The notes: a model not told the origin generated them from the letters alone. Numbered from the stretch's first letter, positions 18,426 through 26,637 are shown. The stretch: DNA of 64,000 nucleotides from an uncultured bacterium (GCA_963813815.1 CAWFAD010000005.1:1-64000), one strand, 5' to 3'. Program-made: numbers and translations.

Positions 18426-19904
18426 CTAATCTCCGCCCGTTCCGAGGCCGTACTCCCTGATCCGCCGGTAGAGCGTCCGCTCCGATATCCCGAGCTGCCT
18501 CGCGGCTTTGCGGCGGTTGCCCGCGTTCGAGGCCAGAGCCTCCCGTATGGCCTCCCGCTCCATCTTTTCGAGGTTGCGGGGCTCCTCTTCCTTTACCTCG
18601 ACGTACCCCCGCCATCCCGGCTGAGCGGCCGGCGGCTCCCCGCGCACGAGCCGGAGAATCTCCCGCACGTCGTTGTGGAGCGAGAGGAGCGAGTTCAGGA
18701 CGAGCTCGCGCTCGACCTCGTCGCGAGTTCTCCGTACGTGCACCGGCAAATCGGGAAAGGGCGCCGCGGTCGCGGTTTCCTTGAGGCGCTTCTCCACCTC
18801 GGCGGCGCCGATCGTTCCCTCGCGGCTCAGAATCGTGAGGTTGTCGACGACGTTGGCGAGCTCCCTCACGTTGCCCGGCCACGGATGATTCACGAGGAGA
18901 TCCATGCCCTGCTTTTCCACGCTCTGCACGCGCTTCGCGTGACGCCGGGCCGACTGCGCCATGAAGTAGTGCACGAGCACGGGGATATCCTCCGTCCTCG
19001 CCCTCAGCGGCGGTATGGCTATCCGCACGACCTTGAGCCGGTAATAGAGATCCTTGCGGAACTCCCCGCGCTCCACCGCGTTCTCGAGCTCGCGATTCGT
19101 CGCCGCGACGATCCTCGCGTCGGTATGCAGCCGCTGGCCCCCTCCCACCCGCATGAACTCGCCCGTTTCGATGACGCGCAGCAGCTTCACCTGCATGTTG
19201 AGCGGCATCTCCCCCACTTCGTCGAGGAAGAGGGTGCCGTGGTTCGCTCGCTCGAAAACCCCCTCGCGCCGCGCGATGGCCCCCGTGAACGATCCCCGCT
19301 CGTGACCGAAGAGCTCGCTCTCGAGCACCCCCTCCGCGAACCCCCCACAGTTGACCGCCTCGAAGGGGCGCTCGCCCCGCCGGCTCATGAGATGGATGGC
19401 TCGCGCCGTGAGCTCCTTGCCGGAACCGCTCTCTCCCACGATGAGCACGGGCACCTCGGTCGGCGCCACCTGCAGCACCGTCTGGAGCATCTCGCCGAGC
19501 GCCGGGGATCTGCCGACGATGCGCGCGGCGGTCTTCACCCGGCGCAGGGCGGCCGTCTCGGCGAAGGCCAGCGCGAACTCCTCCGCGTCGAGCGGCAGCG
19601 CAACGTACCGGTCGACGCCGAGCAGACGCTCGCGTTCGATCGAGCGCTCGTCCCTCGGGGGACCGAAAACGAGGCAGTCGAGGAAAAAGAAGGTTTTCTG
19701 CACGCGGTGGACGACGGTGAGGTAGTTCTTGAGCTTGCTCGTCGCATCGATCGCGAGGATGACGCCGCCGGGAGGCTCCTGCGCGGAGAGAACGTCGGCC
19801 AGGTTCGCGAACGCGCGGAGCTCGATCCCGCCGGACGCCGCTGCCTCGCGCAGCGCCGCCTCGATCCCGGGATCCTGAACCAGCGTCCAGAGAACCGGCT
19901 GCAT
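18426..19904 (-). CDS. Sigma54-dependent transcriptional activator with degenerate receiver-like N-terminus
   Basis: GESGSGKE, ESELFGHERGSFTGA, LFLDEVGE, FRKDLYYRL, WPGNVREL and a C-terminal Fis HTH. Confidence 0.92.
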   Translation of the reverse strand: MQPVLWTLVQDPGIEAALREAAASGGIELRAFANLADVLSAQEPPGGVILAIDATSKLKNYLTVVHRVQKTFFFLDCLVFGPPRDERSIERERLLGVDRYVALPLDAEEFALAFAETAALRRVKTAARIVGRSPALGEMLQTVLQVAPTEVPVLIVGESGSGKELTARAIHLMSRRGERPFEAVNCGGFAEGVLESELFGHERGSFTGAIARREGVFERANHGTLFLDEVGEMPLNMQVKLLRVIETGEFMRVGGGQRLHTDARIVAATNRELENAVERGEFRKDLYYRLKVVRIAIPPLRARTEDIPVLVHYFMAQSARRHAKRVQSVEKQGMDLLVNHPWPGNVRELANVVDNLTILSREGTIGAAEVEKRLKETATAAPFPDLPVHVRRTRDEVERELVLNSLLSLHNDVREILRLVRGEPPAAQPGWRGYVEVKEEEPRNLEKMEREAIREALASNAGNRRKAARQLGISERTLYRRIREYGLGTGGD

Positions 19905-19920
19905 ATCCCCCCTGCGTCCG

Positions 19921-21291
19921 CTATTCGATCCGGTAGAGCTTTATCTTTTCGCGGAGCGTCTGCCGGCTGATGCCGAGCACCCGCGACGCCTTCGACTTGT
20001 TTCCCGCCGACTCCCGAAGCGTGCGATCGATGAGGAGCCGCTCCATCTCCTCGATGCTGATCGGATACAGCCCGTCGAGCGCCGGCGCGCCGGCTGACGG
20101 GGGAACGGCCGCATCGCCCTGCGAGATTTCCGGCGGCAGGTGCGCCGGCAGGATCTCGTCATCGGCCTCGAGCAGCATGGCCCTCTCGATCACGTTCTTG
20201 AGCTCCCGCACGTTGCCCGGCCATGAATAGCGTTCGAGCTTCTTCGAGAGCTCCGGTCCCGCCTTCTTCACGCTCTTCTTGAATTCGCGGTTGAACGACG
20301 CGATGAAATGATTGGCGATCGGCACGATGTCCTCGACGCGTTCTCTCAGCGGAGCGAGCGCTATGGGAATCACTTTGAGCCGATAGTAGAGATCGTTCCG
20401 GAACCGGCCCTCCTCGATCGCCTTCTTGAGATCGCGGTTCGTGGCGGCGATGATCCGCGTGTTCACCCGCAGATCCTTGACGCCGCCGACGCGGCGGAAG
20501 GTCTTGTTCTCGATGACCCGCAGGAGCCGAGTCTGCAGCGTGATTCCCATCTCTCCGATCTCGTCGAGAAAGATCGTGCCGCCCTCGGCGAGCTCGAAGA
20601 GCCCCTTCTTGCGATACTTCGCATCGGTGAAGGCGCCTTTTTCGTGGCCGAAGAGTTCGCTCTCGAGCAGCGTTTCGGGAAGCGCCGCGCAGTTGATCTC
20701 GAGAAACGGCCAGCGCGGGCCGCCCGACGCCTCGTGAATCGCCCGGGCCACGAGCTCCTTCCCCGTGCCGCTCTCCCCATTGATGAGGATCGTCGTGGCC
20801 TTGCTCGCCCCGATCTTCTTGATCGTTTCGAACACGGCGGTCATGGCGGGGCTGCGGCCGATGAAGTTCTTGAAGCCGAAGCTCTCGCGATCGCGCTTGC
20901 GGATGTCGTCGAGCTCGGCCCGCATCGAGCTCGACTCGAGCGCGTTGCGGATCGAGATCTTCATCTTCTCGAGCTGAAAGGGCTTCTGTATAAAATCGTA
21001 CGCCCCGCCCCTGATCGCTTCGACCGCCGTCTCGATCTCGCCGTAGGCCGTCATCATGACCACGGGGACGTCCTGCTCGATTTCCTTCACCTTCCGGAGC
21101 ACGGAGAGGCCGTCGCCATCGGGCAGCTTGAGATCGAGAATCACGCCGTCCGGCGGATCGCTCTCGAACTTCTTGACCCCCTCCGCCGCATTCGGCGCCT
21201 CTTCGATTTCGTAGCCGGCCGCCTTGAGGGCCTCGCCGAGCGACCAGCGGATTGCCTTCTCGTCGTCGATGATGAGAATGCGCTTGCCCAT
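19921..21291 (-). CDS. NtrC/AtoC-family sigma54 response regulator
   Basis: REC domain (IIDDE, LDLKLP, MMTAY, QKP), GESGTGKE, GAFTDA, WPGNVREL and HTH. Confidence 0.95.
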   Translation of the reverse strand: MGKRILIIDDEKAIRWSLGEALKAAGYEIEEAPNAAEGVKKFESDPPDGVILDLKLPDGDGLSVLRKVKEIEQDVPVVMMTAYGEIETAVEAIRGGAYDFIQKPFQLEKMKISIRNALESSSMRAELDDIRKRDRESFGFKNFIGRSPAMTAVFETIKKIGASKATTILINGESGTGKELVARAIHEASGGPRWPFLEINCAALPETLLESELFGHEKGAFTDAKYRKKGLFELAEGGTIFLDEIGEMGITLQTRLLRVIENKTFRRVGGVKDLRVNTRIIAATNRDLKKAIEEGRFRNDLYYRLKVIPIALAPLRERVEDIVPIANHFIASFNREFKKSVKKAGPELSKKLERYSWPGNVRELKNVIERAMLLEADDEILPAHLPPEISQGDAAVPPSAGAPALDGLYPISIEEMERLLIDRTLRESAGNKSKASRVLGISRQTLREKIKLYRIE

Positions 21292-21301
21292 GTCCTCCCC
21301 T

Positions 21302-23395
21302 TCAGTTCGGCGCAGGAGCCGTCGCGCGGCCCGCCGAAACGAGCGTCATGCGCGGAAGCTCGACGAAGAAACTCGCGCCCGCGCCGGGAGCGCTCCGGTG
21401 GCGGATGCGCCCCCCGTGGCTCTCCGCGATCTTGCGCGAGATCGAAAGGCCCATCCCCGTTCCGTCGGGCCTCGTCGTGAAGAACGGATTGTACAGCTTG
21501 TCCGCTATCTCCTCGCTGATGCCCGATCCCGTGTCGGCGAGCTCGATCTCGACGAATGCGGGATCGGCCCCCTCCCGGAGCGTCACGGTCACGCGGCCTC
21601 CCGGCGCGCACGCCTGGATGCCGTTGAGGGCGATGTTGAGTATCACCTGCTTGATCTGATCGCCGTCGAGAATGCAGCGATCGTCGGCGAGCGAGCTCTC
21701 GAACCGCAGATCGATCTCTCCCTCCTGCGCCCGATCCTCGACGAGGCGGAGCGCCTCCCGTACCACCTCGCCGAGCGCGAGCTCGACGGGGCACGGAGCG
21801 ACCGGGCGGGCGAAGGTGAGAAAGCTCTTGATGATGCCGTCGAGTCTCGCGATCTCGCCGAGAATGACGTCGAGATACGGGAGGCGATCGCCGTCCCCCG
21901 CGAGCTTCTCCCGCAGCACCTGCGCCGTCGTCGCGATGCCGGTGAGGGGGTTGCGGATCTCGTGCGCGATCCCCGCGGAAAGCTCCCCGAGCGAGCGCAG
22001 CCGGTCGGCCCGGCGGAGCTCCTCCTCCATCTCCTTCTGCGCCGTGAGATCCTCGAACACGACGATCACGGTCCGTCCGTGGTGCTCGTCGCGTGTGACG
22101 CGCGCCGTGTTGAGCCGCACCGGGATCGAGCGTCCGACCGGCCGCGCGAGAAGGCATTCGAAGGTGCAGCTCTCCTCGCTCCGCGCCAGCAGATGTTCGA
22201 AGATGCCCCCGTGACCGAATGGATTGGCGAAGAGATCGTCGAGCGGCCGGCCGAGCGGCGCGCCGCCGGCCAGCTCCCTCGCGCGCTCGTTGAGAAACTC
22301 GATCCTGCCGGAGCCGTCCGTCGTGAGGACGCCGCCGTTCATGTTCTCGAGCACCGTCTCGTTGAAGTCCTTGAGCTGCCGCAGGCGGCTGATGTTGACC
22401 GCGTTCGCGACCTCCTCCGCCAGAATCGTCTGAATCGTATTGAAAAAGTAATAGTCGTCCAAGTAGGCCTTCCGCGAACGGTAGGCCTTGCGCACGATCA
22501 GGAATCCGAGCCAGCGATTCTTGTAGAGAAGGGGCACGGCCGTATGGGACCAGGGGGCCGTCATGGAAAGGCACGTGCGAGCGGCGTCCGGCCCGACGGC
22601 GTCGAGATTGATGATCTCCGTGGGAAGAAGGTCGCACCGTTGCGCGGCCGCGAGACGCTCGACCGCTCCGTCCACGAACGCCGGCTCGAGCTGATACGCC
22701 GTCCGGACCTTGAGCACTTGCGCGTTGTTGCTGAACAAGAGGAGCGCCGAGCCGTCGGCGTCGAGATACCGGCAGAGCGCCATGAGAAAACGGTCGAGGG
22801 CGTCGCTCCAGTTTTCGTTCGTGCTGATTTCGCGGCCCATCTGATACAGCACCCGCAACCGCGTCACGTGGCGTTTCAGCAGCTCGTTCGCCTGTCGGAG
22901 CTCCTCGTTGATCCTCGCGAGCTCGCGGGCGAGCGCCTCCTTTCCCTCCTCGAGCCTGCGATTCTGCGTCTCGAGACGCACGAGGATTTCCTCGCTCTCG
23001 CTCCGCAGGCGGGCCTGGGCCACCGCCGACTCCACGGCCTCTCCGATCTTCGCGAGATCGAACGGCTTGAGGATATAGTCGAAGGCGTTCAGCCGCAGCG
23101 CCGCGATCGTGCTCTCGACCGACGCGAAGGCGGTCATGATGATGCAGGCCATCGAGGGATTCGTTTCCGAGAGCGGCGCGAGAAGATCGATGCCCGTCCG
23201 GTCGGGCAGCTTAAGATCCACGAGGGCGACGTCGAAGCGCTCATTCGCGGCGAGCGCCAGGGCCTCGGTCGCGGTGCCGGCGCCCGCGACACGGTATCCC
23301 CGGCCCGCGAGAAACTGAGAGACGAGCTCGAGGATCCCCGGCTCGTCGTCGACGACCAGTACCGAAGCGGACGCATGCTCCGACCGGTGAGCCAT
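21302..23395 (-). CDS. Hybrid sensor histidine kinase (REC-coiled coil-GAF-like-PAS-HisKA-HATPase)
   Basis: N-terminal REC (VVDDE, VDLKLP); AHEIRNPL H-box; NIALNGIQA, DTGSGI and FFTTR..GTGMGL boxes; no TM segment seen. Confidence 0.93.
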   Translation of the reverse strand: MAHRSEHASASVLVVDDEPGILELVSQFLAGRGYRVAGAGTATEALALAANERFDVALVDLKLPDRTGIDLLAPLSETNPSMACIIMTAFASVESTIAALRLNAFDYILKPFDLAKIGEAVESAVAQARLRSESEEILVRLETQNRRLEEGKEALARELARINEELRQANELLKRHVTRLRVLYQMGREISTNENWSDALDRFLMALCRYLDADGSALLLFSNNAQVLKVRTAYQLEPAFVDGAVERLAAAQRCDLLPTEIINLDAVGPDAARTCLSMTAPWSHTAVPLLYKNRWLGFLIVRKAYRSRKAYLDDYYFFNTIQTILAEEVANAVNISRLRQLKDFNETVLENMNGGVLTTDGSGRIEFLNERARELAGGAPLGRPLDDLFANPFGHGGIFEHLLARSEESCTFECLLARPVGRSIPVRLNTARVTRDEHHGRTVIVVFEDLTAQKEMEEELRRADRLRSLGELSAGIAHEIRNPLTGIATTAQVLREKLAGDGDRLPYLDVILGEIARLDGIIKSFLTFARPVAPCPVELALGEVVREALRLVEDRAQEGEIDLRFESSLADDRCILDGDQIKQVILNIALNGIQACAPGGRVTVTLREGADPAFVEIELADTGSGISEEIADKLYNPFFTTRPDGTGMGLSISRKIAESHGGRIRHRSAPGAGASFFVELPRMTLVSAGRATAPAPN

Positions 23396-23429: not shown

Positions 23430-23789
23430 TCAGCCGGCGAGCCTCGACTTGATGAATCGGTCGAGGCTCTTGAGCGAGATCTCGTTTACATAGGTGAACA
23501 GTATGGCGACCCGGTACCGGGAGATCGCGGGGTCCTTCTTCTCGGGCTCCACGCGCACGACGATGCCGTCGCACGTTACCGACGCGTCGCTCCGCTTCGG
23601 GTCGGGGAGCGGCACGCGCAGCTCGAGCCGGACCTTGGTCAGGGGCTCCATGAAATGCGGCGATTCGAAATAAATGCCGCTCCTGCTGATGTTGAGCGCT
23701 TTGCCTTGCGCCGTGCCGGGCCCGCCGGTGACCGTGACCGCGAGATTCGCTTCGACCCGCTGCGCCTTCCGTCGTTCCGTTTCTATCAT
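23430..23789 (-). CDS. PilZ domain protein
   Basis: RRKAQR (RxxxR) and NISRSG (D/NxSxxG) c-di-GMP-binding motifs. Confidence 0.85.
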   Translation of the reverse strand: MIETERRKAQRVEANLAVTVTGGPGTAQGKALNISRSGIYFESPHFMEPLTKVRLELRVPLPDPKRSDASVTCDGIVVRVEPEKKDPAISRYRVAILFTYVNEISLKSLDRFIKSRLAG

Positions 23790-23926: not shown

Positions 23927-24029
23927 GTGTCCTCCCTATCGATCGACCGCCGCCGTCCGGCGACGCCGCTCCCGGGTCGGGCGCGCGGCAAGGCGCGCAT
24001 CCACCGCCGGACGCGACAGCAATAATCCG

Positions 24030-24305
24030 TTACGTGTTGACGAGCGCCCGGAGCTCGTTCGACGCCTTGAAATACGGCACGAGCTTCGCCGGCACTTCCA
24101 CCGCCGTGCCGGTGCGGGGGTTGCGGGCCTTGCGCGACTTGCGGCTCTTCACCTTGAAGCTTCCGAAGCCGCGGAGCTCAACCTTATCACCCTCGGCGAG
24201 CGCCTTGATGAGATTGTCGATGATGAGGTTGACGACGATGCTCGTGTCCTTCTTGCTCAGCCCGGTTTCCTTCGAGATTTCCTCGACGAGATCGGCCTTT
24301 GTCAT
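24030..24305 (-). CDS. HU/IHF-family DNA-binding protein (IHF-beta-like)
   Basis: MTKADLVEEIS...VELRGFGSF...ARNPRTG...VPYFKAS. Confidence 0.95.
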   Translation of the reverse strand: MTKADLVEEISKETGLSKKDTSIVVNLIIDNLIKALAEGDKVELRGFGSFKVKSRKSRKARNPRTGTAVEVPAKLVPYFKASNELRALVNT

Positions 24306-24405
24306 ATTCCGTCACCCCGCTCCTTACTTCGCGGTTCCCCGTAAGAGTGATCGCCCTCGATCCTCTCGCACGCAAAACGAATGAGCATGCGTAACGTCTT
24401 TGTAT

Positions 24406-24443
24406 TGCTATCACAATGCCGATGGCGTGTCAAAATATATTTT
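24406..24443 (-). promoter_or_regulatory. Promoter region of the HU/IHF operon: TTGACA -35, overlapping sigma54-like GG-N10-GC element and AT-rich palindrome
   Basis: Minus-strand TTGACA at 24428-24433; CGGCATTGTGATAGCA at 24406-24421; perfect palindrome AAAATATATTTT at 24432-24443. Confidence 0.5.
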
Positions 24444-24485
24444 TGCGCGAAAGGGCGGCGCCGCGAGGCGGAATCAATCGAGCGG

Positions 24486-24515
24486 TTGCACGGAGGGCGT
24501 CGAGTGTGCTATCAT
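24486..24515 (+). promoter_or_regulatory. Putative sigma70 promoter driving a non-coding RNA
   Basis: TTGCAC-N18-TATCAT with extended -10 TG; the predicted start at about 24522 coincides with the 5' end of a long stem. Confidence 0.6.
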
Positions 24516-24521
24516 AAAATT

Positions 24522-24623
24522 AAAGTTCCCCGTTCGTACCGTGTACCCCTGGTCGGTGGTTTTCAGCAACACGTGAGGATGTGAAACACCTCAGGGACAA
24601 AGCACGGGTAAACAGGGAACTTT
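24522..24623 (+). ncRNA. Unidentified ~102-nt structured non-coding RNA
   Basis: Terminal 9-bp stem AAAGTTCCC/GGGAACTTT plus further stacked helices; lower GC than the flanks; no credible ORF; own promoter. Confidence 0.6.
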
Positions 24624-24859
24624 CCGCGTGCATCGAGGCACTTCATCAAGAGTTGTGCCATTTCGCGGCGCCTACGGCGCCATGCCACAACCCGCGGACG
24701 CGCAATCAGTTGCGCCCGCTCCATCACGCCGCGTCCGCCCGCGTCGCGCTTGCCGCAACACGCATTCGCCACGCGGGCGGACGCCCGGTGTTGCGATTTA
24801 CACGATGTGCCTTGGTTGAGAGCGGAGAGTTGCTGCGATTCCTCGGCCCGCGCGGTCCG

Positions 24860-26260
24860 TCAGAGCGATCCGCCGCCGAGGCGGCAGATGCGGAAGAGCG
24901 TTTTGAAGAGCTCGACGTGAGCTTCGCTGAAGGGAACGTCGCGCCGATCCATCATCGTCCTCGCCGTATCGATCGCCTCGTCGAGCTCGAAGCGCACGTA
25001 CTCCGGCTCGAGCAGCCACGTGAAGCTCGGAACGAGCTTCGGAGGAAACCCGCTCGAGACGACGTTCGCGTTGAACCCGACCACAGCGCCCGTGTTGAGC
25101 CGCGAGTTGATCGCCACCTTCGCGTGATCGCCGATCGTCGCGCCGAGAAACCGGCGTCCCGTGTCGCGCATGCGCCCGGCGGTCCATGCCCGCACGAGGC
25201 CGTAGTTGTTCTTGAGATCGCTCGTGCAGCTGCCCGCCCCTATGTTGACCCACGAGCCGATGTAGGAATGACCGACGAACCCCTCGTGCTGCTTGTTGCT
25301 GAAGGGCGAGATCACGCTTTCCTCTATCTCGCCCCCCACCCGGCACCGGCGTCCGATCGTGGTGCCGCGGCCAATCTTGGCGCCGCCGCGCACGATCGAA
25401 CCCTCGCCGATCGCGCAGGGGCCGAAGATGATCGCGTTCGGCTCCATGCGCACGCCGTTGGCGATGACGATCGCGCCCTCGCTCGCGTCGAGCACCGTTC
25501 CCGATCGCACCTCCACGTCCGCGCCGATCACGATGTCGTTCTCGTTGATGAGCTCGACGCCCTTGAAGAGCTCCGTTTCAGGGGCCGTGCCGCGGAGCGG
25601 CGATTTCTGAAAATCGTCGACGATGCAGGCTCGATTCTCGCCGATGAGCTGCCAATAGTGCGACACGAGGCGCATGCTCGATTCCTCGAGCTTCACCCCG
25701 CTCTGCGAAGCCCACTTGGCGAGCGCCCTGCCGCGCGACGCATCCCCCTCCTCCCGGGCGGATACCGCCCCTCCCGTCTCGGAAGAGGAGACCCGTTTGA
25801 TCTCGGCCGCCGTTTTCTCCACGTGCGCGTTTGAAATCATGGAACCGATGTACCCCGCGAGGGCCGAGGCGCTCTCCCCCGCGAGCCTCGCCCCGACGAT
25901 CGTCCCTTTCTTCCTGTGGAGCGTTCCCGTCTCGACACGCGATACGAAGTCGCGAAGCTCCGTGCCGTACGCGAGCAGCCGGCCGTTCAGAAAGAGGATC
26001 TCCTCGCCCCCGGGCAGTGAGTTCACCGTGCCGGGGCGTCCGCCCTCGATCGCCTCGTCCGCGGCGAGAACGGCCGCCAGGTACGGTCGACAGAGGAGGG
26101 CCAACGATCGCGGATCGATCTCGTCGACGATGCGGCCCCTGAGGCTCTGAAGCCCGATCGCGAGATCGAAAACCGGATGGGCGAGGGAGAGGGGAAAGAA
26201 ATCCGCGTAACGATCGTCCTCGAATATGCAGAGGGCGGCAGACGGTTTGCTGTTATTCAT
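24860..26260 (-). CDS. Alternative GlmU-like putative sugar nucleotidyltransferase with hexapeptide repeats
   Basis: CIFEDD..FFPLS..PVFDL..G, FLNGR, SNKQHEGFVGHSYIG.WVNIGAG..SDLKNNY and hexapeptide repeats. Confidence 0.85.
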   Translation of the reverse strand: MNNSKPSAALCIFEDDRYADFFPLSLAHPVFDLAIGLQSLRGRIVDEIDPRSLALLCRPYLAAVLAADEAIEGGRPGTVNSLPGGEEILFLNGRLLAYGTELRDFVSRVETGTLHRKKGTIVGARLAGESASALAGYIGSMISNAHVEKTAAEIKRVSSSETGGAVSAREEGDASRGRALAKWASQSGVKLEESSMRLVSHYWQLIGENRACIVDDFQKSPLRGTAPETELFKGVELINENDIVIGADVEVRSGTVLDASEGAIVIANGVRMEPNAIIFGPCAIGEGSIVRGGAKIGRGTTIGRRCRVGGEIEESVISPFSNKQHEGFVGHSYIGSWVNIGAGSCTSDLKNNYGLVRAWTAGRMRDTGRRFLGATIGDHAKVAINSRLNTGAVVGFNANVVSSGFPPKLVPSFTWLLEPEYVRFELDEAIDTARTMMDRRDVPFSEAHVELFKTLFRICRLGGGSL

Positions 26261-26338
26261 TCGGAAGTCCGCTCGCGCCCGGCAGCGCCGGCGCGAGACG
26301 CGCCAGCGCAACCCGGGTCTTGCTCGATGATGGTAAAA

Positions 26339-26414
26339 TGGTGGAGTTGACGGGGCTCGAACCCGTGGCCTCTTGACTGCCAGTCAAGTGCTCTCCCAGC
26401 TGAGCTACAACCCC
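26339..26414 (-). tRNA. tRNA-Ala (GGC)
   Basis: 76-nt cloverleaf GGGGTTGTAGCTCAGCTGGGAGAGC...CTGGCAG...GGTTCGAGCC...ACCA with the G3:U70 Ala determinant. Confidence 0.97.
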
Positions 26415-26549: not shown

Positions 26550-26637
26550 GCCGGAGTGGTGGAACTGGTATACGCAGGGGACTCAAAATCCCCCGGGGCT
26601 TAGCTCCGTGAGGGTTCGATTCCCTCCTCCGGCACCA
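26550..26637 (+). tRNA. tRNA-Leu (CAA)
   Basis: 88-nt cloverleaf with long variable arm, anticodon loop CTCAAAA, GGTTCGATTCC T-arm and encoded CCA. Confidence 0.97.

Follow-up and report, generated by a model that had tools for sequence, protein, structure and literature searches.

The systems closest in layout to the element described here are GlmY of Enterobacteriaceae and the Qrr small RNAs (sRNAs) of Vibrio. According to the respective reports, glmY has a sigma-54 promoter, an upstream-bound NtrC-type regulator, GlrR (QseF), and a requirement for IHF (PMC3045617); the glmY gene of Proteus lies in an operon with the qseE-qseG-qseF genes behind it (PMC8745638); and the Qrr sRNAs are sigma-54-dependent and activated by LuxO (10.1101/2021.07.01.450815). 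A comparable arrangement is found in the window, i.e., the stretch of 64,000 nucleotides from an uncultured bacterium of the phylum Candidatus Krumholzibacteriota that was analysed here (Table 1). Because its layout matches that of glmY and of qrr/LuxO, the element is read as a stand-alone sigma-54-dependent regulatory sRNA, transcribed from the window's minus strand from approximately 24634 to 24514. This reading is probably correct, with the strand, promoter type, conservation and structure of the sRNA being based on sequence comparison.

The likeness to GlmY and GlmZ lies in the sigma-54 promoter and in the position of the sRNA near genes for a kinase and an NtrC-type regulator; in the window, these genes lie on the same strand as the RNA and are accompanied by an upstream box and an IHF-like box. 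However, the window RNA has no Rfam match at E<=10, and its fold is a single rod, whereas GlmY and GlmZ are composed of three hairpins. Furthermore, the HU and PilZ genes are placed between the RNA and the kinase gene, and the sigma-70 promoter of the window is convergent (antisense), whereas that of glmY is overlapping and has the same direction. With the Qrr sRNAs, of which qrr1 adjoins luxO, the RNA shares a (predicted) sigma-54 dependence, a length of approx. 100 nt and a (putative) terminator at its end, but it differs in its lack of an Rfam match and in its single copy per genome. The kind of element, a sigma-54-dependent sRNA beside a two-component system, is already known, and the RNA family, which has no Rfam match and occurs in two uncultured phyla, is most likely new. 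Among the papers listed under the name Krumholzibacteriota, the subjects are metabolism and ecology, and nothing on RNAs of this phylum appears.

Table 1. Coordinates of the predicted sRNA, its promoter region and the neighbouring genes in the window
Feature	Position	Strand	Basis or remark
Predicted sRNA, approx. 115-120 nt	24514..24634	-	R1 match, fold, covariation
Single-stranded 5' tail GCACGCGG	24624..24631	-	invariant in all 23 A2 sequences
P1 5' arm AAAGUUCCCUGUU	24611..24623	-	pairs with 24522-24534
5' arms: P2 24603-24606, P3-P5 24582-24598	24582..24606	-	A4 alignment
16-nt apical loop CAUCCUCACGUGUUGC	24566..24581	-	anti-Shine-Dalgarno-like CCUC and palindromic CACGUG
3' arms: P3-P5 24545-24565, P2 24540-24543	24540..24565	-	A4 alignment
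P1 3' arm AACGGGGAACUUU	24522..24534	-	A4 alignment
U-rich tract UUUAAUUUUAU directly past P1	24514..24524	-	terminator-like end together with the rod
Predicted sigma-54 promoter TGGCACAACTCTTGA (TGGCAC-N5-TTGA)	24660-24646	-	-24 GG 24659-24658, -12 GA 24647-24646
Spacer from -12 element to start, with first transcribed bases	24632..24645	-	free sequence, 13-15 nt
IHF-like box CAA-N4-TTG	24700..24716	-	by eye; between upstream box and promoter
Conserved upstream box, GTTGCGATTTACACGATG on + strand	24790..24807	-	131-148 bp upstream of -24 GG
Extended -10-like promoter, TTGCAC + 18-nt spacer ending TGC (C 24509) + TATCAT	24486..24515	+	points into the sRNA gene
HU sigma-70-type promoter	24404..24433	-	TTGACA 24433-24428, TGTGATAGCAAT 24415-24404
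HU/IHF-family gene, 91 aa	24030..24305	-	PF00216, 111.8 bits
PilZ protein	23430-23789	-	Pfam
Hybrid kinase REC-PAS-HisKA-HATPase	21302-23395	-	Pfam
NtrC-type regulator REC-AAA+-HTH	19921-21291	-	Pfam
Second sigma-54 activator	18426-19904	-	Pfam

Fold, conservation and coding strand

The initial annotation had described a rod beginning at 24522, and this rod is borne out. Within 24522-24623, the left end AAAGTTCCC (24522 onwards) forms pairs with the right end GGGAACTTT, which stops at 24623, and the fold is more stable than those of shuffled sequences on both strands (plus strand, -39.2 kcal/mol, z -3.10, equalled by 0/200 shuffles; minus strand, -41.8 kcal/mol, z -4.38, bettered by none of 200). 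The predicted minus-strand RNA (24513-24634) reaches -42.9 kcal/mol (z -3.02). RNAalifold returned only the outer stem from the raw plus-strand alignment, and the inner helices required a hand-set structure.

The class is not represented in Rfam: among all 4227 models, none matched 24505-24640, or the RNA within 24300-24900, at E<=10, and at the gathering score the whole window yielded only two tRNAs, both outside the element. The covariance models for Qrr, GlmY and GlmZ (which we take to be RF00378, RF00128 and RF00083, respectively) likewise gave no match to the RNA at E<=10. The SRP RNA model RF00169, for which at least 40 bits are needed, had no match in the window, and the 6S models RF00013 and RF01685 had none to the window RNA at E<=10. 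The genome's SRP RNA was located at C7:345616-345715 (72.1 bits) and its canonical 6S RNA at C11:161550-161736 (83.3 bits, RF00013), with RF01685 (6S-Flavo) matching nowhere in the genome. Since these genes lie elsewhere, an SRP or 6S identity of the element was rejected, in agreement with the earlier statement that it is neither SRP, tRNA nor 6S. In shape, the window RNA (approx. 115-120 nt) forms a continuous rod that has small loops internally and one of 16 nt at its apex; the 6S hallmarks, a length of approx. 180 nt and a large central bubble separating the closing stem from the terminal stem, are absent. A small protein was also rejected: in the window, TGA comes after the GAGGATG of the plus strand, the length of the promoter spacer is variable, and substitutions follow a compensatory pattern with no three-periodicity.

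Conservation was assessed at two depths. By BLAST, the stretch was found in 23/41 genomes, the window's own included (16/24 in family f1, 1/1 in f2 and 5/8 in f3), and it was not found in the 7 genomes of families f4-f8. The aligned relatives share a conserved block from approximately 24505 to 24665, in which two invariant blocks, TTTCCGCGTGC and TCAAGAGTTGTGCCA, enclose a freely varying stretch of 13-15 nt. When the hand-set structure was applied to the 23 minus-strand sequences (alignment A2, 21 distinct), 92.4% of 708 cells were paired, 8 pairs showed double changes, and G.U exceeded A.C by 77 to 10 (21 sequences). The covariance model R1, run with stricter filters in the larger searches, detected the RNA in 41/151 genomes of the phylum (f1 28/32, f2 1/1, f3 5/6, f4 5/61 and f9 1/9; none in the 41 genomes of f5-f8), with a single forward-strand match per genome; the match in the window spans 24513-24631 (-) and scores 129 bits. 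For alignment A4, 50 loci were supplied to the model, some of them one site fetched twice, giving 49 sequences (41 distinct), and the cut-off was tightened from 1e-5 to 5e-6, which removed four reverse-strand matches. In the 41 distinct sequences, 91.9% of 1378 cells (34 pairs) are paired, compared with 35-57% in slid controls, and double changes occur in 22/34 pairs, as against 11.9+-1.9 in shuffles (0/500 reach 22). These values favour the model's own structure because A4 was fitted to the model, but the strand asymmetry is unaffected by this. The earlier view of a conserved, structured and probably stand-alone non-coding RNA is supported.

The asymmetry concerns the coding strand. The initial annotation had placed the RNA on the plus strand, divergent from HU, i.e., as a transcript of approx. 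102-180 nt from a TTGCAC/TATCAT promoter. The plus strand also folds well (see the z value above), and some genus-level relatives, inspected by eye, have a plus-strand hairpin followed by a U-rich tail. However, read on the minus strand, A4 contains 150 G.U against 17 A.C cells, so that the plus-strand reading carries 150 A.C mismatches and the minus-strand reading only 17; pair by pair, G.U predominates in 20 and A.C in 2, and pairing falls from 91.9% on the minus strand to 82.2% on the plus strand. When the latter is read, the helices contain many C.A mismatches (e.g., C10.A93 in most sequences), and changes of CAGGGA to CAAGGA or CAGGAA break pairs, whereas the minus strand has U.G wobbles and C-to-U transitions at such positions and retains the pair. 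The excess of G.U over A.C thus argues that the selected structure belongs to the window's minus strand, co-directional with HU. A functional plus-strand RNA of the kind first proposed appears very improbable. More generally, the balance of G.U and A.C is able to correct the strand call for near-palindromic rods.

The same observations bear on the idea that the conserved unit acts at the DNA level, e.g., as a repeat or as a palindrome bound by protein, rather than as an RNA. In favour of this, the element is an inverted repeat between two promoters, and the complement of the P1 arm recurs within the promoter spacer of several genera. Nonetheless, a repeat is at odds with one forward-strand match per genome, and neither the strand-asymmetric G.U pattern nor the compensatory changes would be expected for a DNA site, which makes this explanation hardly credible.

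Within the predicted minus-strand sRNA, the most widely retained part comprises the basal helices P1 and P2. In P1, 94.7% of cells are paired, a U.G wobble is present in 38/41 sequences, and distant homologues show double changes from A-U to U-A and from C-G to U-A; P2 is 99.4% paired, and 16/17 pairs of P3-P5 show double changes. It had been suggested that TTTCA and TGAAA could form a kissing interaction in a three-way junction, but the two form an ordinary helix, in which relatives show a double change from A-U to U-A. At the order level, the 5' tail GCACGCGG is invariant, but it is not kept in the six distant homologues. The apical loop CAUCCUCACGUGUUGC is near-invariant in f1 and f2, has a related form, CUCUCCGUGUUGUA, in f4 and is replaced in f3. 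A loop-tail pseudoknot (CACGUG with CGCGUG) was rejected, as it shows no covariation and f3 loses the loop while keeping the tail invariant. Directly after the stem, at least 5 U are found within 12 nt in 41/42 homologues, and the distant homologues carry clean U runs such as AUUAUUUUUU. A simple terminator scan of 24000-25000 returned 0 terminators; it missed the rod and U tract because the stem and loop exceed the limits of the scan. The same scan shows no plus-strand terminator, which again speaks against a functional plus-strand transcript.

The second hairpin of the original description (24624-24668) occurs only in this window, and its GGCAC arm falls within the freely varying 13-15-nt stretch. 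This 3' tail shows no covariation as a hairpin and is reinterpreted as the sigma-54 promoter and spacer of the minus strand; it is a conserved tail without a role in a plus-strand RNA, yet it fits a sigma-54 promoter exactly. The borders first given for the RNA are accordingly replaced by those in Table 1, of which the 5' end near 24634 is placed by the usual spacing of sigma-54 promoters, at which transcription starts approx. 12 nt past the -12 element, and the 3' end is placed by the U tract.

Promoters and gene neighbourhood

The predicted sigma-54 promoter TGGCACAACTCTTGA shows the -24/-12 pattern with the exact GG-N10 spacing and is followed by the free spacer and the invariant GCACGCGG. 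The pattern GGCA[CT]-N5-[CT]TG[ACT] lies upstream of 42/42 distinct homologues (the 41 of A4 and L078). The -12 element reads TTGA, versus the canonical TTGC, in 36/42; in the six distant homologues, the sequence around the promoter is changed, and the -12 element is TTGC or CTGC in two. In the genome, TGGCAC-N5-TTGC occurs at 10 sites, compared with 0 at the N4 and 0 at the N6 spacing, and TGGCAC-N5-TTGA at 4 sites, including the one at 24660-24646. The genome encodes rpoN (PF04552, 211.6 bits) and enhancer-binding proteins (17 PF00158 matches, two of them in the window 3-6 kb downstream of the RNA). Hence, two features expected of a sigma-54-dependent sRNA, a -24/-12 promoter directly upstream and a genome with rpoN and enhancer-binding proteins, are present.

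Further upstream, the conserved box is kept in genus-level relatives, and related boxes were recognized by eye at the family and order levels. Its sequence TGTAAATCGCAA occurs once in the 2.53-Mb genome, and it has no clear dyad; the box is a candidate site for an enhancer-binding protein. The IHF-like box, in a region that is A/T-rich in relatives, is a partial match to the IHF consensus WATCAANNNNTTR, and its assignment is weak.

Several side observations concern this region and its promoter type. The interval from the upstream box to the sigma-54 promoter holds a long G+C-rich hairpin (24731-24784), which Rfam microRNA models match by chance; relatives do not obviously conserve it, and it may terminate transcription of the gene upstream (24860-26311, minus strand). 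In several f1 genera (L056-L068, L071 and L036), the 14-nt promoter spacer reads CAGG(G/A/T)AAC(T), which is complementary to the P1 5' arm located 12 nt further downstream and creates an inverted repeat around the predicted start; this repeat is absent from the window's genus. Elsewhere in the genome (G000, C9:31341 and C9:33019, plus strand), 1.7 kb separates two canonical sigma-54 promoters of nearly identical sequence, TTGGCACCAGTGTTGCGTT, and a Shine-Dalgarno-like GGAGGC stands behind each of them.

On the opposite strand, the letters of the plus-strand promoter first described are present (TTGCAC 24486-24491, TG 24507-24508 and TATCAT 24510-24515). TTGCAC agrees with TTGACA at 3/6 positions, and a simple consensus scan of 24000-25000 found 0 sigma-70-like sites. 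A strict TTGnnn-N14-17-TGnTAnnnT directly follows the predicted sRNA terminator in 29/42 homologues, f3 included, with fixed bases that are those that matter in extended -10 promoters. Such rightly spaced TTG, TG and TAnnnT elements would suit a functional plus-strand RNA. However, they are absent in 13/42, including all six distant homologues, where the RNA and its sigma-54 promoter persist, so that the site cannot be regarded as the promoter of the structured RNA. Its conservation in 29/42 implies that the opposite strand may be transcribed too: the promoter may well be genuine, and a cis-antisense RNA may start from it at approximately 24522. That such an antisense partner accompanies the minus-strand sRNA, which does not exclude the main reading, is put forward tentatively.

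The gene neighbourhood is conserved together with the RNA. In the loci of other genomes that were examined, HU and PilZ lie downstream of the RNA in 14/14 (HU adjacent in 13), and in every one of these loci HU and the RNA point the same way. Further downstream, 10/14 carry the kinase and regulator genes in conserved order, namely all order-level loci and that of f9. The four f4 loci contain other REC and kinase genes and lack the kinase/activator pair, which indicates that the proposed regulator is not universal. Within the window, the two sigma-54 activators are arranged in tandem (18426-21291, minus strand), the first with a receiver domain and the second with 128 N-terminal residues that have no Pfam match. 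Two divergent tRNA genes (26342-26414, minus strand, and 26550-26634, plus strand; 68 and 52.8 bits) are situated just past a sugar nucleotidyltransferase gene.

Given this co-directional arrangement, the RNA could instead be a cis-acting leader, with the sigma-54 promoter driving an HU-PilZ-kinase-activator operon and the rod serving as a conditional terminator (attenuator). It would agree with such a role that, in 16/16 loci of Candidatus Eisenbacteria (see below), HU has a related RNA upstream of it and that glmY of Proteus is reported to be co-transcribed with its own kinase/regulator genes (PMC8745638). On the other hand, HU has a promoter of its own after the predicted terminator, with a TTGACA past the RNA and ahead of the HU start in 22/22 relatives inspected by eye, and its placement after the rod argues that HU does not need the sigma-54 promoter. 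Moreover, the 165-250 nt from the rod to HU are poorly conserved, the transcribed part shows no alternative pairing of anti-terminator type that is conserved, and in Eisenbacteria the RNA is furnished with its own terminator and parted from HU by an sppA-like gene. An attenuating leader is thus improbable. The HU promoter region (24404-24445, minus strand) also has an extended -10 element and an A/T-rich stretch upstream; it occurs order-wide and shows the sigma-70 consensus of the lineage.

Proposed mode of action

For the stand-alone sRNA, the start, stop, regulator and mode of action are inferred. The sigma-54 RNA polymerase would bind TGGCACAACTCTTGA (24660-24646), and an enhancer-binding protein, most likely the NtrC-type regulator of the downstream pair, would open the promoter complex, acting from the box approx. 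130-150 bp upstream, perhaps with the help of an HU/IHF-type bend. Transcription would begin near 24634, and the transcript would fold into one imperfect rod (P1-P5) and end at the U tract (24524-24514), with the closing stem P1 doubling as the terminator stem. The finished RNA would then act in trans. Base-pairing through the CCUC-containing apical loop and the 5' tail, which would occlude ribosome-binding sites, is conceivable, with slightly less than even chances, whereas protein binding via the conserved basal helix seems somewhat unlikely. A target scan with RNAduplex, in which the loop and tail were compared with 15,316 crude start sites, gave no clear target: the best value was -25.4 kcal/mol (mean -13.2, sd 2.8), and most matches fell in doubtful ORFs. 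Two sequencing runs contributed five 151-nt contigs of low depth and unclear kind, which are uninformative on strand or ends.

Related RNAs in Candidatus Eisenbacteria

The NCBI taxonomy treats Candidatus Eisenbacteria as a candidate phylum of its own. A loose pattern scan of genome contigs (GTTCCCTG-N70-95-CGGGGAAC) gave at least 120 loci, almost all due to chance, and among the matches listed, the useful ones were one Krumholzibacteriota-type and three Eisenbacteria loci. In three Eisenbacteria genomes, two or three weak R1 matches each were obtained, which represent three paralogue types with a common closing stem, GUUCCCUG/CGGGGAAC. The type A RNA was detected by BLAST at E<=1e-25 in 26/121 Eisenbacteria genomes, eight more having only short, weak matches. 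The core pattern is present in 20/26 of these loci, and a GG-N10-GC promoter lies 29-46 nt upstream in all 20 core-matching loci. Type A folds into a rod and has the same P1 U.G wobble as the window RNA in 16/16, with an HU gene approx. 1.1 kb downstream in 16/16 and an sppA-like frame between. The RNAs of the two phyla thus have in common the closing stem GUUCCCUG/CGGGGAAC with its fixed U.G wobble, the promoter type and the linkage to HU.

The type A model R2 missed the window sRNA in filtered whole-genome searches; applied to loci with filters off, it found the RNA in 7/7 Krumholzibacteriota loci, each time in the correct position and orientation (20.6-36.7 bits). In turn, type A obtained R1 scores of 24 bits (E 0.003 for the genome concerned) and, in another genome, 15.2 bits (E 1.05).

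The Eisenbacteria loci also display features of their own. The type A loci (L224-L249) combine the sigma-54 promoter with a 107-nt rod that has an invariant apical part, GGUCCUGAGCUGAUCCCCUCGACGAGACGACGCAGUU, and they are flanked by phosphoglycerate-mutase-like and sppA-like frames (named from reading the translations). Two more paralogue types (L217-L222), with the closing stem GAAGUUCCCUG/CGGGGAACUUCC, stand behind sigma-70-type promoters, and each is conserved between three Eisenbacteria genomes; Rfam matched no family to L219 and L220, which belong to these types.

With respect to 6S RNA (RF00013), the window RNA is similar in its rod shape and, by eye, in its basal helices (UUCCCU...CCGUG / CACGG...GGGGAA), which resemble the closing stem of the genome's own 6S RNA; it differs in length (approx. 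115 nt vs. approx. 185 nt) and in lacking a central bubble. The Rfam 6S model gives type A 26-30 bits, which is under the cut-off of 46.4, over a span comprising the closing stem and the CUGAGCUGA stretch, and a canonical 6S RNA lies elsewhere in 5/5 Eisenbacteria genomes tested; type A may be a truncated 6S paralogue. Pairwise comparison of the window sRNA with the genome's own 6S RNA was not significant (p 0.15-0.2), and R1 found only fragments at the genome's own 6S locus (E 4.5 and 7.2). Because the window RNA itself has no 6S match, R1 does not find the genome's own 6S RNA and the pairwise comparison is non-significant, the 6S link is a lead and not a finding. In its fullest form, it would posit that Krumholzibacteriota and Eisenbacteria have in common a hitherto undescribed family of miniature 6S-like RNAs with sigma-54-dependent transcription, which bind RNA polymerase or another protein, and not mRNA, and which are checked in most Krumholzibacteriota by a sigma-70-driven cis-antisense RNA from the plus-strand promoter. 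So extended a proposal is rather improbable. The top-ranked literature on 6S RNA, sigma-54 and paralogs holds nothing on sigma-54-driven 6S-like RNAs.

With the stand-alone sRNA as the preferred reading, the locus provides an uncultured phylum with a proposed circuit that is complete and open to testing, comprising a kinase, an NtrC-type activator, an upstream box, a sigma-54 promoter and a small RNA, and this circuit adjoins the genes of HU and of PilZ, a c-di-GMP receptor. The design known from glmY and qrr would thereby be carried far beyond Proteobacteria, and the link with the 6S-like RNAs of Eisenbacteria, if true, would bear on the diversification of 6S-type RNAs.
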